Assembly (NCBI GenBank): GCA_035549295.1
Contig: DASZRG010000043.1
Location: forward strand, 1,910 to 65,909
Reading direction: 5' to 3'
Source: Patescibacteria group bacterium
GTDB lineage: Bacteria > Patescibacteriota > Microgenomatia > Levybacterales > GWA1-39-11
DNA: 64,000 nucleotides
The position numbers and the translations under genes are program-made. This document shows, one piece after another, positions 8,821 to 35,302 of this stretch (the stretch's first letter is position 1; the number at the start of each line of letters is the position of its first letter). Below the pieces are notes generated by a model that did not search any database, was not told the origin of the DNA, and worked only from the letters and a program-made list of their open reading frames with translations.

Positions 8821-8867
8821 CACGCACGAAATACGCTCCAAAAAATCATATCTGATATACTAAAATC

Positions 8868-9797
8868 GTGGAAAAACGAGAGGTAAAAAATACACCTCCA
8901 TCATCAAAAAAAGTAATTTTGGCATCTTTTTTGGTCGATCTTTCTGATGTTCTGCTGAGCCTTTTCGCTGCGACCACCTCCGGAAGCATCATCATGTTTA
9001 TCGAGCTAATTGAGGCTATTGCTGACCTTTCAGCATCCGGACTACTTGTAATTGGTGCCAACCGAGCAAAACTACCCGCAAATAAAGCCTTCCCATTTGG
9101 TCACGGCCGTGAAGTCTACTTCTGGAGCTTCATTTCGGCGATTTTGATAATAGGGATCGCATCAACATTTTCGATATATTTTGGCTGGCAAAGACTCACA
9201 AACCCGCATGAAATTAAAAATATTCAGTTAACTTTTCTTATACTTCTTATAACAACCTGCACCAATGGGTATGCGTTCTACATAAGCCTAAAGCGTCTTC
9301 GTGGCAAAATACACTCAAGAAGCATTTTAAATTCATTCCTGAGATCGTCACTGGTCGAAATTAAAACCACTTTTGTACTCGATCTAATGGGAACTGTTGC
9401 ATCAATTCTGGGATTTTTCGCATTACTAATATATGTTGCAACAGGCGACTTACGATTTGATGGAATTGGAGGAATTACGGTTGGATTCACACTTGCTACG
9501 CTCGGAATACTTCTGATTCTTGGAATACGAGACCTCTTAGTTGGTAAAAGCGCATCAAATGAGACTTTGGAACTTCTCAAGAAAATTGCCCTCACAATAC
9601 CTGAAGTAAATGATGTTTTGGAAGTAAAAACAATGCACATTGGGTCAGAAAGGCTTCTTGTAAACATGAATGTTACGATGAAAAATAACCTCACGACACA
9701 AGAAGTCGCAAAAACTATAGATGAAATCGAAAGAAGAATAAGAATAGAGATGCCAGCCGTAAAACATATTCAGGTCGAACTTGACCTTCCAGAATAG
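8868..9797 (+). CDS. Cation diffusion facilitator (CDF) family metal efflux transporter; GTG start
   Basis: The 309 aa ORF has six predicted TM helices (HGREVYFWSFISAILIIGIA) plus a C-terminal cytoplasmic CDF domain. It is encoded opposite to the flanking ribosomal genes. Confidence 0.8.
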   Translation: MEKREVKNTPPSSKKVILASFLVDLSDVLLSLFAATTSGSIIMFIELIEAIADLSASGLLVIGANRAKLPANKAFPFGHGREVYFWSFISAILIIGIASTFSIYFGWQRLTNPHEIKNIQLTFLILLITTCTNGYAFYISLKRLRGKIHSRSILNSFLRSSLVEIKTTFVLDLMGTVASILGFFALLIYVATGDLRFDGIGGITVGFTLATLGILLILGIRDLLVGKSASNETLELLKKIALTIPEVNDVLEVKTMHIGSERLLVNMNVTMKNNLTTQEVAKTIDEIERRIRIEMPAVKHIQVELDLPE

Positions 9798-9808
9798 TAA
9801 TTTATAAT
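9781..9808 (+). promoter_or_regulatory. Putative promoter TTGACC (9781-9786), 16 nt spacer, TATAAT (9803-9808), placed 8 nt before the NUDIX ATG, consistent with a leaderless mRNA
   Basis: The hexamers are read directly. There is no Shine-Dalgarno sequence between the -10 element and the ATG at 9817. Confidence 0.45.
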
Positions 9809-9816
9809 CACAATAT

Positions 9817-10239
9817 ATGAATCAGCGAGTCGTCATGGGCGGATTTATTGTCCGAGATAAAAAATTTTTGATTGTAAAACGATCCAAAAATGATAGTTTT
9901 CTTCCAGGATTTTGGGAAATACCAGGCGGCAAACTCGAGCATGGAGAATCTCCAGAATCTGGTTTGTATCGGGAGCTCCTGGAAGAAACAGGATTGAAAG
10001 TAAAGCCTATTAGCGCACTTTCTTCGTGGACTTATGGAAATGTAGACAAAACACAGTTCATTCAAATAGACTATTTATGCGAAATAGAGCAAGATGCACA
10101 AGTTATTTTAAGCGAAGAACACGAAGAATATAGATGGGTTGATTTTGAAGAGGCTAAAAAAATGGATATAACAAGTCCTATGAAAACTGAAATTTTGAAA
10201 TTTGAACAAAATCCGCTAGTGAGAACTTACTTCTCCTAG
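9817..10239 (+). CDS. NUDIX hydrolase (MutT-like)
   Basis: The Nudix box GGKLEHGESPESGLYRELLEETGL (G-x5-E-x7-REUxEExGU) is present in a 140 aa ORF. Confidence 0.85.
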   Translation: MNQRVVMGGFIVRDKKFLIVKRSKNDSFLPGFWEIPGGKLEHGESPESGLYRELLEETGLKVKPISALSSWTYGNVDKTQFIQIDYLCEIEQDAQVILSEEHEEYRWVDFEEAKKMDITSPMKTEILKFEQNPLVRTYFS

Positions 10240-10242
10240 AAG

Positions 10243-10554
10243 CTACATTTTAATTTCAACATCAACTCCGGCTGGAAGATCAAGGTGAATAAGAGACTCA
10301 ATTGTCTTTTCAGTTGGCGAAATAATATCTATGAGTCTTTTGTGAGTCTTGAGTTGGAAGTGTTCACGAGCATCTTTGTCGATAAAAGGTGACTTATCAA
10401 CTGTAAAAACGCTTCTTTTTGATGGTAGCGGTATAGGACCTGCAATTTTTGCTCCAGTTCTGATAGCCGTATCAAGGATTTGTTGACACGTTGAATCTAT
10501 GATCCTTGAATCATATGATTTTAGTCTAACTCTGATTCTTCCTTTTTGTGCCAT
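10243..10554 (-). CDS. rpsJ: 30S ribosomal protein S10
   Basis: The 103 aa ORF starts [15 protein letters not shown] and carries the S10 fold sequence. Its stop codon lies 3 nt from the convergent NUDIX stop. Confidence 0.95.
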
Positions 10555-10570
10555 GACTTCCTTTTTAAAA

Positions 10571-10605
10571 TAAAAAAACCTACCGCTTTCAGCGCAGTAG
10601 GTTTA
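10571..10605 (-). terminator. Intrinsic terminator after tuf
   Basis: On the minus strand, a CCTACTGCGC / GCGGTAGG stem-loop is followed by a 7-U run. It sits between the tuf stop (10678) and the rpsJ start. Confidence 0.55.
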
Positions 10606-10677
10606 CACATGCTTTTCTAACCAAAATTGTAAAATGTGCTACCAGAGATCCCGGATCAAGTCCGTGATGACCAAATG

Positions 10678-11859
10678 TTATTTGGTCACTTTAGTAATAA
10701 CTCCGGCTCCTACTGTTCGGCCACCTTCACGAATAGCAAATCTCATTCCTTCTTCAAGTGCGATAGGTACAATAAGCTTTGCACTCATCTTGGTGTTGTC
10801 TCCTGGCATAACCATCTCAACACCCTCACCAAGGAATATTTCACCAGTTACATCAGTCGTTCTGATATAAAACTGTGGTCGGTATCCTTTGAAGAATGGA
10901 GTGTGACGTCCACCTTCTTCTTTGGTAAGAACATAAACTTCAGCTTCAAATTCTGTGTGAGGAGTAATAGATCCTGGTTTTGCTATAACCATTCCACGCT
11001 CAACATCAGCTTTTTCGATACCTCGAAGAAGAAGTCCAGCATTATCTCCTGCTTGAGCATCTTCCAATGTCTTTCGGAAAGCCTCAATTCCTGTGATAAC
11101 TGTTGATTTAGTAGGTTTGATACCAACTATTTCGATTGTGTCGTTAACTTTTGTAATACCGCGTTCTACGCGTCCAGTAACAACTGTTCCGCGACCCTTG
11201 ATTGAGAAAACGTCCTCAACAGGCATAAGGAATGGCTTGTCTGTATCACGAACTGGAGTTGGAATGTACTCATCAACCTTGTCCATGAGCTCCATGATTT
11301 GAGCTTCAGCCTCAGCATCACCTTGAGTTGCTTTAAGAGCTGAACCCTTGATGATTGGTACCTCTGCACCAGGATATTGATATTTTGAAAGAAGTTCACG
11401 AACTTCCATTTCAACGAGATCAATAAGTTCAGGATCTGAAACCATATCAATTTTGTTAAGGAAAACAATAATTGAAGGCACTCCAACCTGGCGAGCAAGA
11501 ACGATGTGTTCACGAGTTTGAGGCATTGGTCCGTCAGCTGCTGAAACAACGAGGATTGCTCCATCCATCTGAGCAGCACCTGTGATCATGTTCTTAACAT
11601 AATCAGCGTGTCCAGGAGCGTCAATGTGAGCGTAGTGTCTTTTGTCTGTTTCGTATTCTTGGTGGGAAATGTTAATCGTAACTCCACGAGCTTTTTCCTC
11701 AGGTGCGTTATCGATATCTTCATATTTTCTTGCTTCTGCGTAACCTTTTTTAGCAAGAACCATTGTGATAGCGGATGTCAAAGTTGTCTTACCATGGTCG
11801 ACGTGACCAATGGTTCCAATGTTGACGTGCGGTTTGTTGCGGTTAAATACTCCAGCCAT
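10678..11859 (-). CDS. tuf: Elongation factor Tu
   Basis: The 393 aa ORF contains [10 protein letters not shown], the DAPGHADY switch region and the NKID motif, and matches EF-Tu along its full length. Confidence 0.97.
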
Positions 11860-12156
11860 TTTTGTAAAAAATAAACCCTTCGTTTAACTCAGGGTGAAAT
11901 ACATGATACAAAACTTTTTAAAAATCGTCAAGAGGTAAATTGCATGCAAATACTCTACAAATATAAATCGTGCGAATATCTACAAATAATAACGGTTTGG
12001 TAATAAGTCTGCGCTACACGAATAAACCCGAATGTAAACGAATGAAATCCGAATAATTTAGTCATCAAGACTAAAGGAGTTAATGATTAGTCTGATGTCT
12101 TAATGATTGATCACTAATTCTTTTAATCCTAATCACTAAAAGGGATTGCTTAATAC

Positions 12157-14625: not shown

Positions 14626-14667
14626 ATTTCAGGTTACACATAAGCTGAACTTTATTCAAGCAAGAGG

Positions 14668-15333
14668 CTACTTTTGTTTAACTAAGAAGTATTCTTCGCG
14701 AGGCAAACCTTCTCTGAGCTTTAAAATTCTTTCGTAATCATGTTTTTGAGACTTGTGGGCTGCCATCGCTGCAAGCTTTGTGTCCCAAACACTTGAAACA
14801 TCGACAACCTCATCTATATCTTCCATCTTGTATCCATCTGGCCTGTAGACAAAATATGGCTGACCTTTTTGTCGATCCGTCATTTGTCTAGTATTTGCCG
14901 TATACATGATCTTTTTAATAAAAGGTGACCTTTCAAAGACGAATGACGAAACCATGGACATAACTATGTGATCTATATGACCTGATCCGCCATTGGGATT
15001 GGAAGTGAGTATCAATTCGGGTTTTATTTTCTCAAGATGCTTCTCAATTGAATCGGCTATTTTATGATAGATCGAATTGGAAAGCGTGCCGTCAACAAAA
15101 CCTAGGAAAAAAACTTTTTTGATTCCCAAAATTTTTGCGGATTTTCTAAGTTCGTCGGCACGAACTTCGGATAATGGTTTACCATTTCTTAAACTATCCT
15201 TCCCTATTTCTCCCTTAGTAGCACAAAGCAAATATAGATCGTATTTTTGGGCAAGAAGCGCTATCGTCCCGGCCGGCCCGAAAGCCTCGTCATCCGGGTG
15301 GGCGAAAATACATACTGCGGTGCGGTTTTTCAC
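14668..15333 (-). CDS. PIG-L / LmbE family N-acetylglucosaminyl deacetylase
   Basis: The N-terminal AVCIFAHPDDEAFGPAGT motif (HPDDE) is characteristic of PIG-L. It lies upstream of, and co-directional with, the 822 aa gene. Confidence 0.75.
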   Translation of the reverse strand: MKNRTAVCIFAHPDDEAFGPAGTIALLAQKYDLYLLCATKGEIGKDSLRNGKPLSEVRADELRKSAKILGIKKVFFLGFVDGTLSNSIYHKIADSIEKHLEKIKPELILTSNPNGGSGHIDHIVMSMVSSFVFERSPFIKKIMYTANTRQMTDRQKGQPYFVYRPDGYKMEDIDEVVDVSSVWDTKLAAMAAHKSQKHDYERILKLREGLPREEYFLVKQK

Positions 15334-15374
15334 AACTGTATTTTATCACTAATGTATCCGAATGGTTAGTCCGA

Positions 15375-15809
15375 ATGAACCGAATGCACTATACTTTAAT
15401 TATGCCCAATATCGTTTATCCGGAACTTTCATATAAGTTAATGGGTATTCTATTTCAAATACATACAGAATTAGGTAATAGATATCAAGAAAAATATTAT
15501 CAACGAGCAATTGAATTATCTCTTAAGAAAAATGGAATTATATATAAAAAGGAACTACCAGTAGATTTAATCTTTGAGGGAGAGAAAATTGGTAAATATT
15601 ATCTCGATTTTTTGGTTGAGAATAAAATTATTTTAGAAGTAAAAGCAGTCGAGAGAATCTTACCTAAAGATTTTACTCAATTACTTGCATATTTAAAGGC
15701 AAACAACCTAGAGCTAGGAATTCTAGTAAACTTCAGGACTAATAAATTATTTTCTCGAAGAATTTTAAACTCGGATTTTCAAAGAGACAATTCGGGTCAT
15801 TTGGAGTAA
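15375..15809 (+). CDS. GxxExxY family protein
   Basis: The sequence YLDFLVENKIILEVKAVERILPKDFTQLLAYLKANNLELGILVNF matches the GxxExxY (TIGR04256-like) family. The start may instead be the second ATG at 15384. Confidence 0.65.
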   Translation: MNRMHYTLIMPNIVYPELSYKLMGILFQIHTELGNRYQEKYYQRAIELSLKKNGIIYKKELPVDLIFEGEKIGKYYLDFLVENKIILEVKAVERILPKDFTQLLAYLKANNLELGILVNFRTNKLFSRRILNSDFQRDNSGHLE

Positions 15810-15834
15810 AAATTCGGATTTATTCGTGATACCG

Positions 15835-16374: not shown

Positions 16375-16610
16375 AGCTATCTAAGTTACACAAGAGGGTT
16401 TAAGTTCACACAAAGATTGGCGAAGAAAAGGGTAAGAACTTATCGAGAATATCTAGATCAATACTACAAATAAGCAAATGAATTAAGAAACTCTAAAATG
16501 AATTAATATATAAATATTATTTCGAATTTATATATTTAACAATTTATAATTCATTTGAACTTTATCATTTGCATATTTGCTTATTAAAGCATGGCTCACC
16601 CTCATCCTAA

Positions 16611-16653
16611 CCTTCTCCCCTCAAGGGAGAAGGAAATCAAGGTTTTTTGATTT
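16611..16653 (+). promoter_or_regulatory. Two consecutive hairpins in the msrB upstream region (CCTTCTCCC-CTCAA-GGGAGAAGG, then AAATCAA-GGTTTT-TTGATTT)
   Basis: Perfect inverted repeats are read directly. They overlap the -35 region of the extended -10 promoter at 16663-16671. Confidence 0.35.
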
Positions 16654-16662
16654 GCGATCTCC

Positions 16663-16671
16663 TGATATAAT
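16663..16671 (+). promoter_or_regulatory. Extended -10 element TGATATAAT, 6 nt upstream of the msrB ATG (leaderless configuration)
   Basis: TGnTATAAT lies at 16663-16671 and the ATG at 16678, with no intervening ribosome-binding site. Confidence 0.45.
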
Positions 16672-16677
16672 GTCTAT

Positions 16678-17070
16678 ATGAAATATAATGACCTTACGGA
16701 TGAAGAGAAACACGTTATTGAGGATCGGGGCACTGAGCGCGCGTTTACGGGTGAATATGACGACTTCTATGTTCCGGGGACTTTTATATGTCGTAAATGC
16801 AATCTCCCTCTATTCTCATCAAAAGCAAAATTTGATGCTGGATGTGGATGGCCGGCGTTTGATGATAATTTTCCAAATGCAATTCGTCGCATGGCTGACC
16901 CTGATGGTGAGCGCACTGAAATAGAATGCGCGAATTGCGGAGCACATCTTGGACATGTTTTTGAAGGTGAGCAGATGACTGAGAAAGATACTAGGCACTG
17001 TGTAAATTCACTTTCTATTCGCTTTGTTAAAGAAGGCGATAAAATACCTCCCACAATAACTGAAGAATAG
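16678..17070 (+). CDS. msrB: Peptide-methionine (R)-S-oxide reductase MsrB, cytoplasmic form
   Basis: The ORF carries two CxxC pairs (CRKC, CANC), the motif GCGWPAF and the catalytic RHCVNS. Confidence 0.9.
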   Translation: MKYNDLTDEEKHVIEDRGTERAFTGEYDDFYVPGTFICRKCNLPLFSSKAKFDAGCGWPAFDDNFPNAIRRMADPDGERTEIECANCGAHLGHVFEGEQMTEKDTRHCVNSLSIRFVKEGDKIPPTITEE

Positions 17071-17098
17071 TTGATATAATTTTTCTCCCAGGTCTTTT

Positions 17099-17662
17099 TT
17101 GTTTATGAAGAAGAAAATGTCGTATGGCAAGTTGTTTTCTATATTTCTCGCTGCCGGCTGGGCCTTTGGAGGCGGCTTGGGAGTAATTTTTGAGATGGAA
17201 AAACAACTCGTACACAAGCACCATTTCCTAAGTAAAAAAGAATTTATGTCTCTTTTTGCAATAGGACGCGTCGTTCCAAGTGGAACAGTCACGGCCATTG
17301 CGATCGCCGTCGGCTACAAATACAAAGGGCTTCTCGGAACTTTAGTTGCGCTTCTCGGGGTCATGATTCCAGGTTTTACAATAACTTTGATACTCGCCGC
17401 GCTCTATACTGTTTTTAAACAAAATAATTATTTTGAAATAATAAATGCCAGCATTATGCCAGCGGCAGTAGGCCTCATATTCCTCGCAGCAGTAAATATG
17501 GGAAAAGACGTTTTTCATTCACCGCTTCTTATTGCGTTCGCTCTAGCAGCATTTCTCGCGACCATGCTTGGCATGAGCGTTACACTTGTCATTGGACTCG
17601 GAGCACTACTTGGAATTGTTCTTTTCTCACAAATAAAGGAGGGTCATGATCTCCCTTATTAA
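17099..17662 (+). CDS. chrA: Chromate transporter ChrA family, N-terminal-half homolog (short-chain CHR)
   Basis: A 187 aa polytopic membrane protein with ChrA-like sequence. It is paired with a second half-size paralog immediately downstream. Confidence 0.75.
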   Translation: MFMKKKMSYGKLFSIFLAAGWAFGGGLGVIFEMEKQLVHKHHFLSKKEFMSLFAIGRVVPSGTVTAIAIAVGYKYKGLLGTLVALLGVMIPGFTITLILAALYTVFKQNNYFEIINASIMPAAVGLIFLAAVNMGKDVFHSPLLIAFALAAFLATMLGMSVTLVIGLGALLGIVLFSQIKEGHDLPY

Positions 17663-18794: not shown

Positions 18795-18805
18795 CCCCAT
18801 AATCT

Positions 18806-18856: not shown

Positions 18857-19753
18857 TTATTGTTCATTTGCAACTCTTTCAAGATCTTGACCATTAATCT
18901 TGCCCATTTTAATACTATCTGTTACAAGTCTATTTGAAGGATTTGCTGTTTCTAGGATCACTTCTTCAGTTACGCGCACACCGAATTGACCTAATTTATC
19001 GGTTAGGTTTCTGTGAGTATCTCCTATTGTAATTAGAACCTTTAGCTGTCCCAAACTTAATTTTTGAAGTAAATCTGGATCTTTTTCGACTAAGGACGCT
19101 ATTTGTTGACCAAATTGACCTACCATAAACCATTCCCTTAAAGACTCAAATGCAACTGTATTTATAATTTTAGCCTTTTCCACTTCTGAGCCTTGTCCAG
19201 TAATTCCATAAATAACATCTCCTTGCTCTATCATCCCGCTTCTTAACTCATCTCCCTCTTCATTATCTACATCAAAAAAGCTTACTCTTGTCTGTGTGCC
19301 AGAAATTGCATCTGCAATTCTGCGATTAAAGGGGTACTGAACAAAATCTTGAACATCCCTATTATCCTGTGCCGATTCACCCGTATCTGCAAGAAAATCT
19401 AAACCTTCTTGTAAATTTTTAGTCCAGCCAAGTCCTTCAAGTAAATAGATATCTGCATCGCTAACTTGCTGCTCATAGCTTTGGTCGCCTAATTCCTCAG
19501 GCGTAGCATGTCTTCCGTATCTAATATGAGTATGGATACCTTGACCAAATTCACTTAAGAACTGGTAACCCTGGCCTAATTCTTCATCTTCTTGCAATCT
19601 ACTAGGAGGCACCAAAGGCGAAATTCTCTCTTTCTTTTGTGGTTCTTGAATAACATAATCTCCGTTTTCCTTAAAAAAGGAATTATTATGCCATGCCACT
19701 TGCGCATCAAGTCTACTATGTATACCTTGCTCAGCTGTATCGTCAATACTCAT
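18857..19753 (-). CDS. Hypothetical acidic protein (298 aa), flanked by the msrB 3'-end direct repeats
   Basis: Clean ORF. A TGTTATATT -10-like element lies 5 nt upstream of its ATG. Confidence 0.5.
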   Translation of the reverse strand: MSIDDTAEQGIHSRLDAQVAWHNNSFFKENGDYVIQEPQKKERISPLVPPSRLQEDEELGQGYQFLSEFGQGIHTHIRYGRHATPEELGDQSYEQQVSDADIYLLEGLGWTKNLQEGLDFLADTGESAQDNRDVQDFVQYPFNRRIADAISGTQTRVSFFDVDNEEGDELRSGMIEQGDVIYGITGQGSEVEKAKIINTVAFESLREWFMVGQFGQQIASLVEKDPDLLQKLSLGQLKVLITIGDTHRNLTDKLGQFGVRVTEEVILETANPSNRLVTDSIKMGKINGQDLERVANEQ

Positions 19754-19833
19754 GTTCTCAATATAACATAGGTTTTATATAAAGATTTAAAAATTCTAGA
19801 ATTTAGCTTAAAATTGTAACACTAAAGGAATTT

Positions 19834-19879: not shown

Positions 19880-20397
19880 ATGGAATTCATGCAATAGCGC
19901 TTGCCTGTGGGCTGTGGGCCATCGTCAAAGACGTGGCCCAAGTGGCCGCCGCATTTATCAAGAACTTCTATTCTTGGCTCGCCAGGAATACTATCATCTT
20001 CGCGAAGGACTAATGCATCAAGCTTAATAGGTGCCCAAAATGATGGCCAGCCAGTACCGGAGTCATATTTTTGCTCAGAGCGGAAAACAGGCTCGTTACA
20101 ACCAACGCTGTAATATGTTCCTTTTCGAGTCTCGTGATCTAGCGCTCCAGTAAAGGGCACTTCTGTCCCGGCCTGCCTGAGTATATTGAACTGCTCAGGA
20201 GTCAAGATTTTTTTCCACTCGGCGTCAGACTTGAACTCTGATTTGTCGAAGGATCCGGAGATGATCTTGGCGGTGCTCGCTGAGTTAGAGGTATTAGGAA
20301 TGTTAGTATTGTTAGAAACGAACCTTAGATAAACTAAAACACCGATAAGTACGAAAGCGACTGCGATAAAGGGTAGCTTGTTTTTCATGATGAGCAT
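19849..20397 (-). CDS. msrB: Exported or membrane-anchored MsrB (peptide-methionine (R)-S-oxide reductase)
   Basis: An N-terminal TM or signal segment ([17 protein letters not shown]) is followed by an MsrB domain ([24 protein letters not shown]). Confidence 0.85.
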
Positions 20398-20615
20398 TTA
20401 CCTCCTGGTGCGCAAACGCCCCGGGGCATACTTGATGGCGATGCATGCGAACAATTTTCAACATTATCACACAAAAGCTTGGGTTTGCTGTGAATGAGGG
20501 CTTGTCTGTTGTTTATCTTCTGACTTAGAAAGAATAAAACCAAAGCAGAAAATATGATTAGAAGAAATAAAAATAAGTTGTTGTTTGATTTATTTTTTTC
20601 CTGCTTTTTCGTCAT
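20385..20615 (-). CDS. Possible small membrane protein (76 aa) with a Cys-rich C-terminal tail
   Basis: The ORF lies between the CcdA-Trx gene and msrB2, with one TM segment and a CDNVENC ... CAPGGKC tail. It overlaps the msrB2 start by 13 nt and has no homology support. Confidence 0.25.
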
Positions 20616-20649
20616 GTATAGAGTATACCAATAAACAAATGTTAAAGGG

Positions 20650-23681: not shown

Positions 23682-23745
23682 TTGAAAATTAATTCAAAAT
23701 CTTCAATACTGTGCTTGCAAAATATGATTTAGATGTTATTATATT

Positions 23746-24381
23746 TTGTGTCCTATGGAAGAAGATCAACCTAGTGAAATTTTTCAGGCCCCCCCAGAAT
23801 ACCAAAGCAGACTCTCGCGTCAAAATTCCGGCGGATCTGGCAAACGCTATCTTATAATCATAATCTTTATTGTTGTCCTTGTTGTAATAATTTTAGGAGT
23901 ATTTAAATTCTTACGAGGAGGAAAAAATACAGACGCAGATATTATGCCAACGCCAACCTCTGAAATTGCTCCTTCAGATACTCCTTCACCAACTCCTATT
24001 AACGGCAGTCCAACACCAACTGGTGCAGTTTCGACCACCCCAAGCCCTTCCACTACTCCGGGCGCATCATCAAGTATCGACAAAGCTACAGGTCTTGATA
24101 GAAGCAAACTAGCAATACATGTCCTAAATGGAAGCGGCGTGTCTGGTGCGTCAAAAAAAGCTAGCGATTTCCTGGAAGGACTTGGCTATAACGTTGTCGA
24201 ATCAGGAAATGCGGAGAATTTTGACTACGACAACTCGGAAATACAAATAAAGGCAAGCGATAGTAAATATCTTGCTCTTTTGAAAAAAGATGCTTCCTCA
24301 AAATATACGATTGGAAGCACTTCAGCAACCCTGAAAGAATCCGGACGAGACGACGCCGTATTCATCGTTGGAAAAGAGTAA
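23746..24381 (+). CDS. Membrane-anchored LytR_C (LytR/CpsA/Psr C-terminal) domain protein
   Basis: A TM helix is followed by a Pro/Thr/Ser-rich linker and a LytR_C-like domain (LAIHVLNGSGVSGASKKASDFLEGLGYNVVESGNAENFDY). Confidence 0.65.
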   Translation: MCPMEEDQPSEIFQAPPEYQSRLSRQNSGGSGKRYLIIIIFIVVLVVIILGVFKFLRGGKNTDADIMPTPTSEIAPSDTPSPTPINGSPTPTGAVSTTPSPSTTPGASSSIDKATGLDRSKLAIHVLNGSGVSGASKKASDFLEGLGYNVVESGNAENFDYDNSEIQIKASDSKYLALLKKDASSKYTIGSTSATLKESGRDDAVFIVGKE

Positions 24382-24387
24382 TTGCAA

Positions 24388-24498
24388 GGGTATCACGGGT
24401 ACCATGGGTATCACGAGTATCACAAGCTATTCATTTTTCAGCAATAACTGTCCACTATAGCACGTGATACTCTTGATACTTGTGATACACTTGATACC
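24388..24498. repeat. Inverted pair of four-unit 9-mer arrays (GTATCACGG-like units) separated by a 33 nt spacer
   Basis: Left arm GGGTATCACGGGTACCATGGGTATCACGAGTATCACAAGC. Right arm GCACGTGATACTCTTGATACTTGTGATACACTTGATACC, which is the reverse complement at about 75% identity. It starts 7 nt after the LytR_C gene stop. Confidence 0.85.
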
Positions 24499-24510
24499 TC
24501 TCATATAACC

Positions 24511-25757: not shown

Positions 25758-26408
25758 TCAGATCTGGCCGTTTTTTAGTCTTTTTGAAAAATCTTCAAGA
25801 AGCTGCTCGAACGAATTAACAGGAATAACGTTTGCCGGAAGTTCAAGTCCCGCCCAATGCCTAAACACAGCGTTGTTAGTGAAATTTTTCATAACATATG
25901 CCAATACATTAGACGGCAAATTCATACTTACTGCCAAATCATCATCCACCTCAACTACTGAGTAGCCTTCGTCAACTTTAGTTTTAACAGTATTTACCTT
26001 ATATGGCAATGAATGCTTACGACCATCATGGGGATTTAAGTTAAAGTCGTCAATCACACTTCTGTAGCCCCACTTATAAAACCATTGTCTTGTTGTCTCA
26101 TGGTGCCGTGGTTCCCTTCCAGATAGAATATCAACACTTACCGCGCGACCTTCCTGGGCTACAATATTTCTAAAACTCCTAACCATCTCTGCTCCTCCGG
26201 GTTTTGGCATTCTATGTTCATATTTTGAATCGCCATCACCCTGAACTGTCGTTGCACTTAGAGTGTCATGTGCGGTTAATATTGGAACTATTAAATTTGA
26301 TCTTCGGATGAGTTTCCAGGCAGTTGGACCTGGCAACGGAGCATTAACGTGCACTCCATCGGCGTCGTTTTGAAATGAAATAGGACTTGGTAATTCACCG
26401 CTTGGCAT
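25758..26408 (-). CDS. Hypothetical protein (216 aa)
   Basis: Clean ORF; no recognised motif. Confidence 0.45.
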   Translation of the reverse strand: MPSGELPSPISFQNDADGVHVNAPLPGPTAWKLIRRSNLIVPILTAHDTLSATTVQGDGDSKYEHRMPKPGGAEMVRSFRNIVAQEGRAVSVDILSGREPRHHETTRQWFYKWGYRSVIDDFNLNPHDGRKHSLPYKVNTVKTKVDEGYSVVEVDDDLAVSMNLPSNVLAYVMKNFTNNAVFRHWAGLELPANVIPVNSFEQLLEDFSKRLKNGQI

Positions 26409-26445
26409 TTCCGGATGGTAACAGAGTCGACTTTAAAAGTCAAAG

Positions 26446-27399: not shown

Positions 27400-27489
27400 A
27401 TCTAGGAAATTCTAGTGCTATTCCTAATCAAGCACCAAATTCAAAATAACAAGATCCAAATAATTTTTCAAATATAAATTTTCAAACTA

Positions 27490-27849: not shown

Positions 27850-27881
27850 TATTTGGAACTTGGAATTTGGAATTTGATGCT

Positions 27882-29675
27882 TTAGTCTCTTGTTGCGTCG
27901 GCAACATGTTCTTCTTCCAGGCGGAAGATACCTTCATCAAGTCTTTTTTGATCAAGGAAATGGGAGATAAATCCAATTGAGCGGGATGCGACAAAAATTG
28001 CGTTAAAGAATTCAATATCTACAAGCTGCTTTAATTCATCAACTGAATAGCCTTCCTTTTCTGATAATAAATCAAGAAGTACCGCAGCTATTGATCCATC
28101 TATATTGAGAATGAGATTTCCCTTTTTCGCAACTGTTACTTTTTCTATTTCTTTTGCAAATTTTGTGTACTTGGCATCAAGTCCTTCTGTGAAAGACAGA
28201 ACTTCAGCAACACGCGGATCTGGAATATCAACTCTATATTTTCTGTGACCTATTCCTGAAATATATTTTTTATTTGCCGCAAATTCTTCAACAAACTTTG
28301 ATGCATCAACATCTCGTTCAACACCCATCACAAAATTTGCTGCTGCTTCATTTATGGCCCCTCCAAATCGTGGACCTATTGTTAAAATTCCTGTAGCTAG
28401 TGACGACACAAGATCGCGTCCTGCGCGTGCTGTAATAATGGTATTAACTGCACCTGATACATATGGACCATGGTCAACAAGAAGTTTGAGAACAAAATTC
28501 ATAAAATCTTCGAGTTCTTGTGACTTGATTTTTTTTCCAAGAAACATTGAGGCAACAACGTACCCAAACGAGTGATTTTTTGAAAAACTCAAAAGTTCTT
28601 CACCCACTATTTTGACACTTCCACCATCATCCCTTGAAATACTTGTTGATATAAGTCCATGTTTTCGACTGTCCATATCATCTATTATAGCCTGTTTCTC
28701 ATCATTTTCTTCCGATAACTCCTGAGGTATCTCGCTCATCATTTGCACAAATTCAGAAAAGCTTTCTGCGACATGAACTCCGGCGTCCCTCAGAGCATCT
28801 CGTTTGGCGCGAGCTGTCTCGCGCGCGTTTGCCGCCATTGCTTTCGCATGACCAAATTGCGGAGCTGTTGGGAAAATTTCAGCAACGGTTCCCGCAATAT
28901 AACAATAAACAGGTTTTGTAAGTTTTCCGCTTTGTATAAGTTCACAAACTCCATATTCATCCGTTCCACCTAGCTCTCCAAAATAAACTATATACTCAGT
29001 TGCCGCATCATTTTCAGCCGCAAGGAATGCTTCTTTTGGTGGAGTTGCAGGAAATCTTTCACCTCCGAAATGGAGCGCAAATGAAATATTTTTCTTGTGT
29101 TGTGCAAGAATGTTTATAAGCTCATTCGTTGTCCCACCTGATGCTGAAAAAACCGCAATGTTACCTCGCTTAAATAAGCGTGCATCAACCAGTTGTCTAT
29201 GCGTAACTCCTCCGATAGCACCAAGTTTTACAATATTCGGAATAATAAGTCCCACCGATGCTGGACCGATGATAAATATATTTTTCGCATCGGCAAGAGT
29301 CTTAAGATCTATCGCATGTTTTTCTGGAACACCTTCTGCAAAAACAGTACCGCCAATAATCGACGGTAATTTTTCAATCGCGTCAGCCGATGAAACAAAA
29401 GCGCGTCTACCCGATGAAACATTTATAAAATATGTGATAGCCTCACGAAGATCACTTGGGATTTTTGCAACTTCAGAATAGACGGGAATTAAAATTTCTT
29501 TTTTTCCAAAAAAGTATCTCTCAAATCGACGGCCCGCAGCAACAATTCCAATAATCGATGGTTTAGTATTTCCCGATGTAAATTCAAAATCTAGAATTGA
29601 TTGAATTATCGACGGATAAGATCCGATGAATAATATTTTTTTGTCTGAACTGATTATTTTGTCTATGCTGATCAT
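27882..29675 (-). CDS. aclA: ATP-citrate lyase subunit A-like protein (succinyl-CoA-synthetase-alpha-like CoA-binding domain plus citrate-synthase-like citryl-CoA lyase domain)
   Basis: Alignable blocks to ATP-citrate lyase include KEILIPVY, IIGPASVGLI, the phospho-His loop QFGHAKAMAA, HGPYVSGAVNTIITARAGRDLVSSLATGILTIGPRFGGA, GIGHRKYRVDIPDPR, KKGNLILNIDG and FISHFLDQKRL. Confidence 0.85.
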   Translation of the reverse strand: MISIDKIISSDKKILFIGSYPSIIQSILDFEFTSGNTKPSIIGIVAAGRRFERYFFGKKEILIPVYSEVAKIPSDLREAITYFINVSSGRRAFVSSADAIEKLPSIIGGTVFAEGVPEKHAIDLKTLADAKNIFIIGPASVGLIIPNIVKLGAIGGVTHRQLVDARLFKRGNIAVFSASGGTTNELINILAQHKKNISFALHFGGERFPATPPKEAFLAAENDAATEYIVYFGELGGTDEYGVCELIQSGKLTKPVYCYIAGTVAEIFPTAPQFGHAKAMAANARETARAKRDALRDAGVHVAESFSEFVQMMSEIPQELSEENDEKQAIIDDMDSRKHGLISTSISRDDGGSVKIVGEELLSFSKNHSFGYVVASMFLGKKIKSQELEDFMNFVLKLLVDHGPYVSGAVNTIITARAGRDLVSSLATGILTIGPRFGGAINEAAANFVMGVERDVDASKFVEEFAANKKYISGIGHRKYRVDIPDPRVAEVLSFTEGLDAKYTKFAKEIEKVTVAKKGNLILNIDGSIAAVLLDLLSEKEGYSVDELKQLVDIEFFNAIFVASRSIGFISHFLDQKRLDEGIFRLEEEHVADATRD

Positions 29676-29747
29676 TTTTTTTCCTTGTCATTCTTAAGGA
29701 GCAACGCGACTGAAGAATCTTTGTTAAAGATCCTTCGAGCTTCGCTC

Positions 29748-30935
29748 TCAGGATGACAAACTTATAATTGCTTCACCTACAATATCTGACACCACAAATT
29801 CCGGGCCATGAACTGCACCTAGTAGCTTATTTTCATCTAAGAATTTTCTCATAATCTCAAGGCCTTCTTTCTGATGTGGACCACCGCGTCTTACAAAAAC
29901 TTTAACTCCTTGCTCTTGAAGATCTGGTACGACATCCGATATAGCACGAATAACTCCCAAAAAAGTCGTTCTAATATCTGTAAAGTTTGCAACTCCTCCA
30001 CCGATAATTAACACCTTTTTCTTCGCCTGAGATTTTAAAAGTAGAGAAAGTAAATTTTTTGCATAGAGAAATGTCTCCTCTTCAGTCGGATTTCCAGAAT
30101 ACTCTCCATAGTTTGCAAGTTCTCCACCATATCCAAGACTCTGGACTTCATCTGCCAGCATTACACTCACTCCTCCACCTGAGAGCAACATAAAAATAGA
30201 ACCATTAGGATTGAGAACAGTTAGCGTAAGCGACGATGAACTTTTCTCGGCAACTTTTGCAATATTTTTCTCTTCCTCAGTTTTATCAAGCTTTGCGGAT
30301 CGGATATCGTGACTACTCCAGTTATCGACAAAAAATTCAGCAGCCGAATCTACTTCACTTGCTATATCAAGCATGAACGGTGTCTTAAAAGAAATAACAA
30401 GAGGATTTATCTCAAGGAATGAAAAATAATTTATTTCAAAAACTTCAATTATTTTGGTAAGAAAGTCAGGACTTAATTCTATTTTTGACGCGACTTCTTC
30501 TATATCTTTTGGATCTGTAATCAGATGTTTTTTTACTTCATGCTCATACGCTTCAACATCAACTCCACCCTTACTTGAGTAATAAAGGACAGTCCCCTCC
30601 CCCGCTCTCTCAAGTGCAAGATAGTGTTCTTCTGAATCTTCATGAGCTATCATTTCCTCAATCAAAAAATGAGAATATCCTTTTTTACTCAGTTCTGAAA
30701 CTGCATCTATTATGTCGTTTGCTTTTTCAAGATCAAGTTTTATAAGTCCTTGTTTAAATCTCTTTTTAATTCCTTGATCAACTTTAACAACGTATTTTTT
30801 ATCGGTCTTTACTGAATCTTCGATCTTTGAAATTGGATCATGATCTATCGTGAAAGGGAAACCAGAATATGGTGTTTTGAGATGATTGTTGACGATAGTT
30901 TTTGCGCGAAATTCGGATAACTTTACTCGTGGCAT
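29748..30935 (-). CDS. aclB: ATP-citrate lyase subunit B-like protein (ATP-grasp, succinyl-CoA-synthetase-beta-like)
   Basis: Blocks matching the ACLY N-terminal half include YLEINPLV, LTVLNPNGSIFMLLSGGGVSVM, ELANYGEYSGNPTEEETFLYAKNLLSLL, KVLIIGGGVANFTDI and VFVRRGGPHQKEGLEIM. Confidence 0.85.
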   Translation of the reverse strand: MPRVKLSEFRAKTIVNNHLKTPYSGFPFTIDHDPISKIEDSVKTDKKYVVKVDQGIKKRFKQGLIKLDLEKANDIIDAVSELSKKGYSHFLIEEMIAHEDSEEHYLALERAGEGTVLYYSSKGGVDVEAYEHEVKKHLITDPKDIEEVASKIELSPDFLTKIIEVFEINYFSFLEINPLVISFKTPFMLDIASEVDSAAEFFVDNWSSHDIRSAKLDKTEEEKNIAKVAEKSSSSLTLTVLNPNGSIFMLLSGGGVSVMLADEVQSLGYGGELANYGEYSGNPTEEETFLYAKNLLSLLLKSQAKKKVLIIGGGVANFTDIRTTFLGVIRAISDVVPDLQEQGVKVFVRRGGPHQKEGLEIMRKFLDENKLLGAVHGPEFVVSDIVGEAIISLSS

Positions 30936-30992
30936 ACTAGTATCAAGTATAAGGTATTAGGTATAAAGTATAAAGAGGCAGCGGCAATAAGA

Positions 30993-31766
30993 TTAAACTT
31001 CAATTCTCATCATATCTTCGCCAACAATGACTTCGCAATTGGCAATATTTTTGATGGTTGCGATCATCTCCTCTTCGCGACCCACGCATTGAGGACCAAT
31101 ATGAGTTAAAACTACTTTCTTAAATCCGCCAATTTTTGCCAAGTTACCAATATCCTCGGGACATAAATGATTACCTATCAATGACTTTTTATCCGGGAAG
31201 GAACATTCAAGTATTGCTATATCGGCATTGCGACCTAGCTCACATATTGTTTCGTCATAACCCATATCTCCTGAATAGACAATGGATTTATCTGAAAAAT
31301 CCAATCGATATGCAAGACTATCTGCGGTGTGTTTTATGCGTGAAGTTGTTACTTTAAAATCAGATGAAGCAATAACAGTACCATCATTAATACTTTGAAT
31401 ACTAAATACATCTTCTAATTTGAAATCTTCTTTATACAATTTCCAAACATTCAACATAATGTCTTGCACACTTGGTGGAACGTTAACTAAAACTTTTTCA
31501 AGTTTTCTATTACGAGTCTCCACGCATCGTCCCTGCATAAATTGGATAAGATCCACATTGTGGTCTATGTGATGATGAGTAATAAAGATATGAGTTGGTT
31601 TAACAAATATATCCATCCCACTCGAGAGCATTTTATGTAACACGCCACCGCCCATATCAAATAATAAATACGAGTCTCCAATTTCAATTCCCCAACCGGA
31701 ATACGATCTAAGCGGTTTATTAGGGGACGGCGCACAGAATCCGGTGCCGTAGAGAGTTAATTGCAT
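30993..31766 (-). CDS. MBL-fold metallo-hydrolase
   Basis: An HxHxDH motif (ITHHHIDHNVD) with downstream His/Asp ligands in a 257 aa ORF. Confidence 0.75.
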   Translation of the reverse strand: MQLTLYGTGFCAPSPNKPLRSYSGWGIEIGDSYLLFDMGGGVLHKMLSSGMDIFVKPTHIFITHHHIDHNVDLIQFMQGRCVETRNRKLEKVLVNVPPSVQDIMLNVWKLYKEDFKLEDVFSIQSINDGTVIASSDFKVTTSRIKHTADSLAYRLDFSDKSIVYSGDMGYDETICELGRNADIAILECSFPDKKSLIGNHLCPEDIGNLAKIGGFKKVVLTHIGPQCVGREEEMIATIKNIANCEVIVGEDMMRIEV

Positions 31767-31912
31767 GAGGATATTATATCAGTAAGGAGAGTTGGGGGAG
31801 TAAGGTAAGTTAGGGGTTAGTAATGACGTTGGGATACGGAAGAGATTCTGAAACAAGTTCAGAATGACGACGTTGGATGGTCAATTGTCAGTTGTTAATT
31901 GTCAATTGTAAA

Positions 31913-34060
31913 TTACTGGGCTGTAATGCGGCCTGTGAATGTGGATTTTGCGAGCATTGCTTGGACAATGTTCTGTGGAACTTCTTCATAGTGTGATGGC
32001 TCCATGTAGTAAGTTGCGCGACCCTGTGACATAGACCTGAGAGTTGTTGCATAACCTGAAAGCTCTGATAGTGGAACCATTGCAAGAATAATTCTTGCAT
32101 TTCCACGCTCTTCAGATCCTGAAATCTGTGCACGCTTTGAAGAAAGATCTCCAATAACATCTCCCATAAACTCCTCAGGTGTTGTGACTTCAACTTTCAT
32201 GATTGGCTCAAGAAGTTTCATGTCACCTTTTTTAGCTGCTGCTTGAAGTGCCATAGATGCAGCAATCTTAAATGCGATATCTGACGAATCGACATCATGA
32301 TATGAACCATCGTAAACAGTAACTTTCAAATCAACAATTGGATACCCTAATAGAATTCCTTTCTCGAGAGTTTCAGCAACTCCCTTACTGACTGATGTTA
32401 CAAATTCCGCTGGAATCGCACCACCCTTAATTGCATTTACAAACTCATATCCTTCACCGCGTGGATTTGGCTGAATTCTCAACCAACAATGTCCATATTG
32501 TCCTCGTCCTCCTGTTTGCTTAATATACTTACCCTCCCCTGTTGCTTCAATTCCAAATGTCTCTTTGTATGCAACTTGAGGAGCACCAACATTTGCAAGC
32601 ACATTAAATTCTCGCTTCATACGGTCTACCATGATCTCAAGTTGAAGCTCTCCGACTCCAGAAATAATAGTCTGGTTGGTCTCGTGGTTGGTCTTAACTG
32701 TAAATGTTGGATCTTCTTCCATGAGACGCTTTAGAGCAAGCCCCATTTTTTCTTGGTCTGATTTGGTCTTTGGCTCAATGGCAAGTGAAATAACAGGTTC
32801 TGGGAAGGTAATCTTTTCAAGAACAATTGGTTTTGTTTCATCACAAATTGTATCTCCGGTTATTGTGTCTTTAAGCCCTACTACAGCAACTATTTCTCCA
32901 GCATAAGCTTCCGCTATCTCTTCTCTCTGATTGGAGTGCATCAGAAGAAGTCGACCTACACGCTCTTTTACATCGCGAGTTGAATTGTAAGCGTAAGAAC
33001 CGGATACCAACTTACCAGAATATATACGAACGAAAGTAATTTTTCCGACGTGCGGATCAATTTGGACCTTAAATGCAAATCCTGTAAATGCCTCTTCAGG
33101 AACTAATTTTCTTGTTTCATCAGTATTTGTCTTTGGATTGATACCCTTAACTTCACCAAGATCAGCAGGAGATGGAAGGTAGTCAACAACTGCATCAAGA
33201 AGTGGCTGAACTCCTTTGTTGCGAAGCGATGTACCTGCATAGATTGGAACTAATTTATATCCGACAACTGCTTTGCGAAGTCCTTGTTTCAACTCTTCAT
33301 TTGAGATCTCTTCACTGTTGAGGTATTTTTCAAGAAGTGTGTCGTCATTTTCTGCAATCTTTTCGATCATCTTGTGACGATATTCCTCAACTTGTGCCTT
33401 CATATCAGCAGGAATTTCATCTGAAATATCGTACTTTGCTCCAAGCTCTTCCCCGCCCCAAGTAAGTGCTTTCATATTGAGAAGATCAACAACTCCTTTA
33501 AAATCGTTCTCAGCACCAATCGGAAGAACCATAATGCATGGGTTTGCACCGAGTCTATCCTCAATTGATTTAACGGTCTTTAGAAAGTCAGCACCGAGCT
33601 TGTCCATTTTGTTAACAAAACAAATTCTTGGAACATGATATTTATCAGCCTGACGCCATACAGTCTCTGACTGTGACTGTACACCTTCTTCTGCATCAAG
33701 AACAGTTACGGCTCCATCTAAAACACGAAGTGAACGCTCAACCTCTGCTGTAAAGTCGACGTGCCCGGGAGTATCAATAAGATTTATTCTGTATGGGATA
33801 TCTTGCCCTTCTGAACGTCCAAGTGGTGTATGTGTCCAAAAAGTGGTAGTTGCCGCAGAAACGATAGTAATACCTCGCTCTCGCTCTTGGTCCATCCAGT
33901 CCATTACTGTATTTCCATCGTCGATATCTCCAATTTTGTATGACTTTCCAGTATAGTAAAGAATACGTTCTGAGGTGGTTGTTTTACCTGCATCAATATG
34001 CGCAATAATTCCAATGTTGCGAATTTTATCGAGTGGTACTTGTCGTGATGTGTCTGCCAT
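31913..34060 (-). CDS. fusA: Elongation factor G
   Basis: The 715 aa ORF has the N-terminus [22 protein letters not shown] and matches EF-G along its full length. Confidence 0.97.
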
Positions 34061-34204
34061 AAATAAAAATAAACTCGAGCTACTTGCCTCGAGGTTTATA
34101 TTCTATCAAAAATTTCCTCCCCCTGCAATAATGCGCAGTGGCTGAGTTGGATCATCACTGATTGTAAACTGATTCACGCTGATTTAATTTCACAAAATGA
34201 TTTT

Positions 34205-34213
34205 TGCTATAAT
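34205..34213 (+). promoter_or_regulatory. Extended -10 element TGCTATAAT, 6 nt upstream of the pepP ATG (leaderless configuration)
   Basis: TGnTATAAT lies at 34205-34213 and the ATG at 34220. Confidence 0.45.
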
Positions 34214-34219
34214 CGTCCA

Positions 34220-35302
34220 ATGAGTGGAAACAGAATTAAAATTCTTCAGGAGAATTTGGTGGATTATAAGATTGATGCGCTCCTTGTTTCATCGGCTATT
34301 AATATTCAATATCTAACAGGTTACTCGAACTTCTCAAAAGATGAGAGGGAGGCGTATCTTTTTGTTACGGGAACATCCGCAACTCTTTTTACTGACTCAA
34401 GATACATTGAGGCGGTCGAAAAAATCATTCCTAAAAATGTTAATGCCACAACCAAAAGACCAATTTCTGATGAAATAAACAAAATCGTAAAAGAAGAAAA
34501 CGTTGAAAAAATTGGTTTTGAAAATAACTTTACATATGATGAGCATTCGCGATTTAAAAAGAAAATATCTGCAAAACTTGTTTTGGTCGACAGCCTAATT
34601 GAAGAACTTCGAAGCGTAAAGGATGATTCAGAAATTGAATCAATTAAAAAAGCTGCAGCACTAACCGACAAAACGTTTACATTTATTAAAAATCAAATAA
34701 AGATCGGTTCTACAGAAAAACAAATTGCGTGGGAAATGGAGAAATATATTCGAGAAAATGGTGGCATCTTGGCTTTCGATACTATAGTAGCTTTCGGTGC
34801 AAATTCTTCGGTGCCGCATCACTTAACATCAGATAAAAGACTTAAGACTGAAGATGAATTTGTTTTACTTGATTTCGGATCGAGAGTCGACGGATACTGC
34901 TCTGACATGACGCGGACTATTCTCACAGAAAGCGCATCGGATCGCGCAAGAAAAATTTATGAAGCAGTTTTAGAAGCTCAAGAGTCATCCGCTCAATTGA
35001 TTAATCAATTAATCAAAGCGTCAAAACCTGTTGATGGAGCAGTTATTGCTCGACGCGCAAATGAAGTATTAAAACAACATGGGTTTGCCGACGTTCCACA
35101 TGGGCTCGGCCATGGGATAGGACTTGAAGTACATGAGCTACCTCATCTTCATCCAAAATTGACAGACGAAATACTTGTTGAGGAGAATTATTTCTCAATA
35201 GAACCAGGAATATATATACCAGGATTTGGTGGAGTTAGAATTGAGGATGATTATTTGATGACAAAGAATGGGCTTGAGCAAGTAACAAAATCACCGAAGT
35301 AA
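34220..35302 (+). CDS. pepP: Xaa-Pro aminopeptidase / M24 family metallopeptidase
   Basis: The pita-bread fold carries metal ligands in the motifs HGLGHGIGLEVHE and DGYCSDMTRT. Confidence 0.85.
   Translation: MSGNRIKILQENLVDYKIDALLVSSAINIQYLTGYSNFSKDEREAYLFVTGTSATLFTDSRYIEAVEKIIPKNVNATTKRPISDEINKIVKEENVEKIGFENNFTYDEHSRFKKKISAKLVLVDSLIEELRSVKDDSEIESIKKAAALTDKTFTFIKNQIKIGSTEKQIAWEMEKYIRENGGILAFDTIVAFGANSSVPHHLTSDKRLKTEDEFVLLDFGSRVDGYCSDMTRTILTESASDRARKIYEAVLEAQESSAQLINQLIKASKPVDGAVIARRANEVLKQHGFADVPHGLGHGIGLEVHELPHLHPKLTDEILVEENYFSIEPGIYIPGFGGVRIEDDYLMTKNGLEQVTKSPK

Follow-up and report, generated by a model that had tools for sequence, protein, structure and literature searches.

In the 64-kb window of contig DASZRG010000043.1 (the whole stretch of DNA that was analysed), extended -10 promoter elements of the form TGnTAnnnT abut the start codons of genes that are alone or first in a predicted operon. 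It is likely that these promoters start transcription at the start codon, or within a few nucleotides of it, and thereby produce leaderless or near-leaderless mRNAs that are translated from a 5'-terminal AUG or GUG. The motif recurs at an exact spacing and its placement is not random, the genes concerned have no Shine-Dalgarno (SD) sequence and are restricted in position, and the arrangement is conserved in relatives. The window has a GC content of 38% and carries the S10/spc ribosomal-protein cluster, tuf, fusA, rpsL-rpsG, rpoBC and approximately 40 other genes. A preliminary description of this DNA had listed five motif/start pairs, from which it suggested a routine use of leaderless mRNAs for accessory genes. 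All five pairs are present at the coordinates it gave, although the spacer of the 298-aa gene is 6 nt (19754-19759) and not 5 nt, and the tally of -10-to-start distances that it had recommended, run on the window, gave a sharp peak of eight genes at 6 nt.

For this tally, starts were called blind to the motif, as the first ATG, GTG or TTG of the longest non-overlapping open reading frames (ORFs), and the distances from TGnTAnnnT to the next start were tabulated. A spacer of exactly 6 nt was found in 8 of 64 genes, namely the CDF, PIG-L, msrB-1, 298-aa, 76-aa, 216-aa, metallo-beta-lactamase (MBL)-fold and pepP genes. One gene has the motif at 7 nt and one at 8 nt, and all the other spacers between 0 and 30 nt account for only three occurrences. 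Among spurious control ORFs called by the same rule, the motif was observed at 6 nt in none of 286. When the upstream 60 nt were shuffled 2000 times, the number of genes with spacers of 5-8 nt averaged 0.43 and reached at most 5, compared with the 10 observed. The 33 intergenic TGnTAnnnT matches, spread over approximately 11,240 strand positions, lead to an expectation of 0.19 per spacer, and a hand calculation from this density gives a Poisson probability of about 3e-11 for at least eight genes at 6 nt. In addition, the six perfect TGnTATAAT sites of the 64 kb are all located 6-24 nt 5' of a probable gene start, in a window that is 91% coding.

Three of the eight genes are on the forward strand. 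The gene of the CDF cation-efflux protein (8868-9797) exhibits TGATATACT at 8853-8861, 6 nt and GTG 8868 (start region 8853..8870), msrB-1 (16678-17070) exhibits TGATATAAT at 16663-16671, 6 nt and ATG 16678 (16663..16680), and pepP (34220-35302) exhibits TGCTATAAT at 34205-34213, 6 nt and ATG 34220 (34205..34222). On the reverse strand, the PIG-L deacetylase gene (14668-15333) exhibits TGATAAAAT, 6 nt and GTG (15331..15348), and the 298-aa gene (18857-19753) exhibits TGTTATATT at 19768-19760, 6 nt and ATG 19753 (19751..19768). The same spacing to an ATG follows TGGTATACT at the ORF of a 76-aa membrane protein (20385-20615; start region 20613..20630), the 3' end of which overlaps the SD-led msrB-2, and a second copy of TGATATAAT at the MBL-fold gene (30993-31766; 31764..31781). 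The 216-aa gene (25758-26408; 26406..26443) exhibits TTGACT-17-(TGt)TACCAT, 6 nt and ATG. A ninth gene with a 6-nt spacer, rpsL (ribosomal protein S12; 39521-39943, reverse strand), exhibits TACAAT without the TG, followed by 6 nt and ATG 39943 (39941..39955). Its start is certain, as the N-terminus MPTLNQ is universal for S12.

The remaining pair of the preliminary description belongs to the NUDIX gene (9817-10239; 9781..9819, forward strand), where TTGACC (9781-9786) is followed after 16 nt by TATAAT (9803-9808), 8 nt and ATG 9817, so that the predicted transcription start site lies approximately 2 nt 5' of the ATG. This promoter is the top two-hexamer match (11/12) between 8000 and 27500. 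In that range, a scan for paired -35 and -10 hexamers revealed no enrichment over shuffles (66 versus 57.6 +/- 7.2). As the scan is blind to extended -10 promoters, it was not counted as evidence beyond ranking the NUDIX promoter first. NUDIX is nevertheless the weakest of the five cases, because only 19 nt separate it from the preceding, same-strand CDF gene, with which it may also share a transcript.

The geometry of these sites is that of promoters. A -10 hexamer spans positions -12 to -7 and the seventh base after it is +1, so that with a 6-nt spacer the first base of the start codon, A or G, falls on +1. In all nine genes with this spacer that base is a purine (seven ATG, two GTG and no TTG). 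The TG one base 5' of the hexamer is present in eight of the nine genes, as well as in yceG, alaS, cofD and LytR_C; this dinucleotide is a sigma-DNA contact, and we know of no role for it in translation. The best match to the -35 consensus TTGACA has at most three of six bases in eight of the nine genes, the exception being the 216-aa gene with its TTGACT, and NUDIX, with a spacer of 8 nt, carries TTGACC. The weak -35 of the genes with a 6-nt spacer is as expected for extended -10 promoters. The TATAAT hexamer also serves leadered genes far from their start, and is thus an ordinary promoter element: the ribosomal-protein operon promoter (8674..8820, reverse strand) consists of TTGCAA-17-TATAAT with a leader of approximately 110 nt to the L3 start at ATG 8676, and TGATAGAAT is found 39 nt 5' of the start of fusA (EF-G). 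Upstream of PIG-L, the divergent intergenic DNA is only 41 nt long and therefore leaves no room for a leader. In addition, a scan of the window at Rfam gathering thresholds returned no matches, so no known leader RNA or riboswitch explains the upstream regions.

The mechanism that we propose involves housekeeping (sigma-70-type) promoters of the extended -10 class, in which TGn and TAnnnT would be recognised, usually with no recognisable -35. At a spacer of 6 nt, RNA polymerase would start on the first base of the start codon (A or G), while spacers of 7-12 nt would place the transcription start 1-5 nt before it, resulting in leaders of 1-5 nt. The resulting mRNAs would have no or almost no 5' leader and no SD sequence, and their 5'-terminal AUG or GUG would be recognised directly by a ribosome carrying the initiator tRNA. 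Such an abutting promoter would be the normal state of monocistronic and first-in-operon genes in this organism, housekeeping genes included.

The use of SD sequences and the position of the genes are consistent with this mechanism. None of the tetramers GGAG, GAGG, AGGA and AAGG is present at -20..-4 of any gene with a 6-nt spacer, nor of the NUDIX gene, in agreement with the preliminary description for its five genes. In the window as a whole, approximately 16% of the genes have a 4-mer SD at -18..-4. Strong AAGGAGG sites had been attributed to the ribosomal-protein genes, but among approximately 19 such genes AGGAGG precedes S14 and L4 only, with AAGGAAG before S10 and weak 4-mers before L29 and L23, and no SD was found before L6, S8, L5, L24, L14, S17, L16, S3, L22, S19 and S7. 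The S14 site, AAGGAGG, is located at 1650..1665 (reverse strand; AGGAGG at 1660-1665), where the S14 start overlaps the end of L5, and further sites of this class precede L4 (7749-7757), ChrA-C (17637-17642), MsrB-2 (20401-20406) and RpoC (43925-43930). SD sites thus fall mainly at genes that overlap their upstream neighbour or directly adjoin it (S14, L4, RpoC, ChrA-C and MsrB-2); other tightly packed genes are without SD.

With regard to TGnTAnnnT at 5-8 nt, it is observed in no gene with a same-strand upstream neighbour less than 30 nt away and in no gene inside the ribosomal-protein operon. The neighbours of the nine genes with a 6-nt spacer are divergent in four cases (CDF, PIG-L, msrB-1 and pepP), and the other five genes follow a same-strand gene after gaps of 37-185 nt. 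Abutting promoters therefore mark genes that are first in a predicted operon or alone, and the split follows operon position, not a division between accessory and ribosomal-protein genes. Of the earlier proposal, the leaderless part has good support from statistics, geometry and conservation, whereas its limitation to accessory genes is contradicted by rpsL, alaS, mltG and cofD, which have spacers of 6-10 nt.

A tail of genes with spacers of 7-12 nt accompanies the peak, comprising PYNP (7 nt), NUDIX and yceG (8 nt), alaS, murB, the PPIase gene and the 185-aa gene (9 nt), cofD (10 nt) and LytR_C (12 nt). In yceG/mltG (47625-48578; 48576..48595, reverse strand), TGGTAAAAT is followed by 8 nt and ATG. 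The LytR_C gene, of the short-leader class, exhibits TTGCAA-16-(TGt)TATTAT, 12 nt and ATG 23755 (23715..23757, forward strand), and murB, with TAGAAT and 9 nt, may follow the pattern too. Strict leaderless cases represent approximately 14% of the genes of the window, and approximately 25-30% when spacers of 7-12 nt are included; spacers of 6-12 nt probably cover more than half of the transcription units.

Two genes of this tail bear on the correctness of the start codons. The longest-ORF rule misplaced the starts of alaS (TTG 55502), cofD (GTG 63224), L3 and LytR_C, the real L3 start being ATG 8676 on the reverse strand. Two perfect TGnTATAAT sites consequently appeared to lie inside the longest ORFs of alaS and cofD, with an in-frame ATG 9-10 nt further on. 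After correction to ATG 55433, alaS exhibits TGTTATAAT, 9 nt and ATG (55431..55451, reverse strand) and its protein has the tRNA-synt_2c domain from residue 5; after correction to ATG 63161, cofD/yvcK exhibits TGCTATAAT, 10 nt and ATG (63159..63180, reverse strand) and its protein has the CofD domain from residue 4. As the shortened AlaRS and CofD begin where their Pfam domains begin, the motif predicted the correct starts. The Pfam domains also fix the called starts of NUDIX (domain from residue 4), msrB-1 (SelR, residue 6), pepP (Creatinase_N, residue 5) and PIG-L (residue 8, with no alternative start codon available), and the MBL-fold protein begins with MQLTLYGTG. In the CDF protein, the Cation_efflux match starts at residue 18, and the sole alternative start is a TTG at codon 18.

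The pattern is also observed outside the window. Among species-representative genomes, the closest pepP relatives have 42-48% identity, and four of them were analysed, on three contigs of metagenome-assembled genomes (MAGs; L003, L004 and L009) and on one contig of Candidatus Daviesbacteria (L005), a member of the candidate phyla radiation (CPR). The pepP orthologues carry TGATAGAAT with 7 nt, TGTTAAAAT with 5 nt, TGTTATAAT with 6 nt and TGTTATTCT with 7 nt before the aligned ATG (4/4), and the DNA upstream is otherwise unalignable. Three consecutive orthologous genes that L003 and L004 have in common have each retained a motif of their own at 5-7 nt. Overall, TGnTAnnnT is found at 5-8 nt in 14 of the 58 genes of the four related loci (eight at 6 nt and four at 7 nt), compared with 1 of 503 genes in 34 Clostridia loci that received identical treatment. 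The proportion of genes with an SD 4-mer is 0-16% in the window and its relatives and 41% in Clostridia. Actinomycetota loci were left out as a positive control because the longest-ORF rule misplaces starts in high-GC DNA. Among metagenomic sequences related to rpsL, with identities of up to 85% (the best is from a 0.1-µm fraction of groundwater), an extended -10 element is often present 8-15 nt 5' of the ATG, without an SD. In the S12-centred metagenome loci, 7 of 155 genes have spacers of 5-8 nt, a weak tally since these loci consist mostly of rpoBC and ribosomal-protein operons with few operon heads.

The three MAG relatives are deposited as 'uncultured Gammaproteobacteria bacterium'. The RpoB and RpoC of the window have 1134 and 1259 aa, and this RpoC scores higher against the chains of Clostridioides, Streptomyces, Mycobacterium and Bacillus than against that of E. 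coli. EF-Tu comparisons gave no such distinction. The short RNA polymerase subunits and the RpoC scores argue that the Gammaproteobacteria label is unfit for the lineage, which is probably allied to the CPR (Patescibacteria).

Other explanations of the abutting motifs can be considered. They could be real but secondary promoters, with the main mRNAs arising from upstream promoters or read-through and the AUGs being translated without SD from A/U-rich, weakly structured leaders, in an S1-dependent manner or through a standby site. Five of the nine genes with a 6-nt spacer, and NUDIX, do lie behind a same-strand gene, and SD-less initiation within transcripts clearly occurs here, given that most genes of the ribosomal-protein operon have no SD. 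However, the neighbours of CDF, PIG-L, msrB-1 and pepP are divergent, with only the 41 nt of intergenic DNA at PIG-L, and a sharp peak at exactly 6 nt, which an internal promoter does not need, is left unexplained, which makes this explanation unlikely. Errors in start assignment could have a similar effect: if the true starts were located downstream, the leaders would be short and SD-less, but not absent. The longest-ORF rule did fail for alaS, cofD, L3 and LytR_C, and the alternative TTG of CDF coincides with the start of the Pfam match. Nevertheless, for msrB-1, pepP, PIG-L, NUDIX, MBL and rpsL the called start lies within 1-8 residues of the conserved domain or N-terminus, with no other start codon in between, and the pepP orthologues begin at an aligned methionine; mis-assignment is thus a very improbable account of the pattern.

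The motif could also be read as something other than a promoter, that is, as a non-SD ribosome-binding or A/U-rich enhancer element of the Bacteroidetes type (GeneMarkS-2 group B). The low use of SD (approximately 16% of genes by the 4-mer criterion at -18..-4) and the A/T-rich upstream regions would fit such an element. In contrast, group B motifs precede first and internal genes alike (PMC6028130), whereas closely packed and operon-internal genes of the window lack TGnTAnnnT at 5-8 nt; furthermore, the invariant T-A...T of the motif and its TG are those recognised by sigma-70, and the same hexamer, with a TTGCAA -35, sits approximately 110 nt from L3. We therefore give a ribosome-binding element only a very slight chance. 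Finally, the matches could have arisen by chance in AT-rich intergenic DNA, or through an artefact of calling a start after an in-frame stop (the TGA in TGAT...). Half of the motifs with a 6-nt spacer indeed open with an in-frame TGA, and the total of six TGnTATAAT sites is not above the shuffle expectation of 3.5. The control ORFs (0/286), the shuffles (at most 5 compared with 10) and the replication in independent related loci, together with the near absence from Clostridia loci (1/503), refute this explanation, the probability of which is close to nil.

Several points weigh against leaderless or near-leaderless transcription from the abutting promoters. The sample consists of a single 64-kb window and approximately 57 kb from four related loci, and both the transcription start at the start codon and the translation of such mRNAs are inferred from DNA. 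Because a same-strand gene lies 37-185 nt ahead of five of the nine genes with a 6-nt spacer, and the CDF gene 19 nt ahead of NUDIX, long-leader read-through transcripts may coexist with leaderless ones. The predicted strict leaderlessness of rpsL is not conserved in its relatives, where only a very short SD-less leader appears to be. In addition, the mRNAs of the leaderless class show no reduction in structure over their first 25-50 nt relative to other genes, but a slight increase (p ~0.05-0.07).

Leaderless initiation has been amply described for Actinobacteria, Deinococcus-Thermus and archaea, and the classical leaderless mRNAs, those of lambda cI from PRM and of Tn1721 tetR, are isolated cases in SD-dominated genomes. 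The mechanism proposed here is the same as for the latter, with a 5'-terminal AUG bound directly by the ribosome and the initiator tRNA. Extended -10 promoters, such as E. coli galP1 and many Gram-positive promoters, form a class defined by architecture that is silent on leader length. Like those of the galP1 type, the promoters described here have the TG one base 5' of the hexamer, at -15/-14, with a weak or absent -35. As read from DNA, the pattern equals the in-silico signature published for leaderless genes of bacteria (GeneMarkS-2 group C/TA-led), in which a Pribnow box is located 6-8 nt from the start of genes that stand first in operons (PMC6028130). Here, too, the -10 box lies 6-8 nt from an ATG or GTG start, at predicted operon heads and monocistronic genes only, and without SD. 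The GGAGG-like site 5-10 nt upstream that characterises the SD-led class is missing from the five genes of the preliminary description, and internal genes lack the TGnTAnnnT that in group B would precede first and internal genes. With the non-SD initiation of Bacteroidetes and Cyanobacteria (group B), the window shares a low use of SD and A-rich DNA before starts; unlike in that group, the -10 element is found only at lone or first genes, and internal genes have a hairpin and a G-poor repeat instead.

In terms of frequency, the leaderless share has been estimated at approximately 19% in Actinobacteria and 39% in Deinococcus-Thermus (PMC3160421), and at 25-50% of operons (PMC6028130). With these phyla (M. 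tuberculosis, D. deserti, Streptomyces) the window has in common the -10 at 6-8 nt, the absence of SD, the ATG/GTG starts, the SD kept elsewhere and a comparable share. It differs from them by its low GC content and by a near-full TATAAT with TGn, not the bare TAnnnT of the high-GC phyla, and it belongs to a different, uncultured lineage. The form of the motif is that of low-GC Firmicutes: leaderless genes have a TANNNT whose first T lies approximately 12 bp upstream, a TG peak being seen in the low-GC Lactococcus, and L. lactis shows the same TG and TAtAAT at this distance (Zheng et al. 2011, PMC3160421). However, leaderless genes average only approximately 4% of genes in Firmicutes, where SD is dominant (PMC3160421); SD 4-mers precede 41% of the genes in our Clostridia control and 9-16% here. 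Operon heads in this lineage, unlike those of Firmicutes, seem to carry an abutting promoter as a rule. Full-text literature searches found no paper treating leaderless initiation in Patescibacteria, CPR, Microgenomates or Saccharibacteria. A new lineage is thus added to a known phenomenon, which involves no new mechanism.

The genes inside the ribosomal-protein operon (891-5887, reverse strand) exhibit a different organisation, as they are set apart by spacers of 58-84 nt rather than by a few nucleotides (891-966, 1393-1463, 2201-2272, 2700-2766, 3142-3215, 3471-3528, 4210-4276, 4916-4989, 5443-5518 and 5804-5887). Most of these spacers belong to two dispersed repeat families, one with CTAGTAxCTAATATCTAAT units and the other with a 5' arm of the GGGGTTAGC type and a 3' arm of the GCCAAAAGCCAAA type. 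In the mRNA sense, they mostly form imperfect hairpins of -14 to -21 kcal/mol (z from -0.4 to -3.8, with 6/9 at or below -2), followed by an A-rich, G-poor tail of 15-25 nt (A 48%, G 8%) that extends up to the ATG without SD. Candidate roles for the spacer repeats are RNA processing, a standby site and mRNA stabilisation, and these intercistronic hairpin repeats are a more unusual feature of the window than the leaderless pattern. Low-complexity G-poor repeat leaders also precede genes in the related metagenomic contigs L105, L115 and L120. Unstructured G-poor short-period repeats are found directly before starts on the reverse strand of the window, at the 23S_IVP-family gene (CAAATTCCAAATTCCAAGTTCC, 27850-27881), at the ACL-beta-like gene (TATACTTTATACCTAATACC..., 30936-30992) and at rpsG (CTAATATCTAGTTACTAGTATCTAATATC, 39484-39520).

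Based on these observations, a broader division of initiation by gene position can be imagined, although we consider it doubtful. According to this division, more than half of the transcription units, rpsL and alaS included, would be leaderless or have a leader of at most 5 nt, with transcription from extended -10 promoters lacking a -35, SD would serve mainly for the coupling of overlapping genes, and operon-internal genes would be initiated behind hairpin repeats and an A-rich tail. In this view, the intercistronic hairpins could either be RNA-processing sites, where new 5' ends arise by the AUG and yield 'secondary leaderless' cistrons, or act as landing pads that do not depend on SD. No such three-way regime has so far been described for CPR-like bacteria.

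Other repeats and leaders were observed in the window. The HhH-GPD gene is preceded by a long inverted repeat of GGGTATCAC.../GTGATAC... (24382-24510, forward strand). An element of approximately 110 nt occurs twice with 88% identity (38150-38280, forward strand; 53430-53578, reverse strand), in sense orientation immediately 3' of the PMT_2 gene and of alaS, with GTATCAxGxG repeats before each copy. It folds to a long interrupted hairpin (-33 and -45 kcal/mol, z of -3 and -4) with no Rfam match, and may be a dispersed repeat of the 3'-untranslated-region or terminator type. Short-period repeats of the TTGACAAT and GTATCAAG types form intergenic runs after gene ends at 31880-31912, 48650-48696 and 60500-60640. 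The leaders of L3 (approximately 110 nt; 8676-8820, reverse strand) and S10 (10555-10677, reverse strand) each contain a terminator-like hairpin with a T-run by the start (8715-8695 and 10604-10576), which may be an attenuator and recalls the leaders of autoregulated ribosomal-protein genes. The hairpin upstream of msrB-1 (~16600-16650) was not called by the terminator scan, and we claim no promoter-isolating terminator there.

With regard to gene content, the CDF and NUDIX genes, which run in the opposite direction, lie between S10 and L3. L3 (7732-8676, reverse strand) has an acidic low-complexity C-terminal tail of approximately 90 aa, and L4 (~6978-7745, reverse strand) has a Lys/Ser-rich N-terminal extension of approximately 60 aa ahead of its Pfam domain. 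The rpmJ gene (L36; Pfam E-value 3.6e-21) lies at 2273-2386 on the reverse strand, between rplX (L24) and rplE (L5), whereas it is usually found downstream of infA, towards the end of the spc cluster. No tRNA gene was found in the window. At 27882-30935 (reverse strand), an ATP-citrate-lyase-like pair (Citrate_synth_N and Citrate_bind; Ligase_CoA and Citrate_synt) is found with the 23S_rRNA_IVP-family gene downstream, and the window also contains genes for a PYNP-family phosphorylase, a sortase and a PMT_2 glycosyltransferase. This mix of ATP-citrate-lyase-like, PYNP, sortase and PMT_2 genes is unusual if the organism is CPR-like.

The frequency of the signature in the window, in the three MAG contigs and in the Candidatus Daviesbacteria contig is typical of leaderless-rich phyla. 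This bears on the annotation of gene starts in such MAGs, where promoter position gave the correct starts of alaS and cofD, on promoter and expression design for unculturable organisms, and on the way in which translation is initiated in genome-reduced, SD-poor bacteria.

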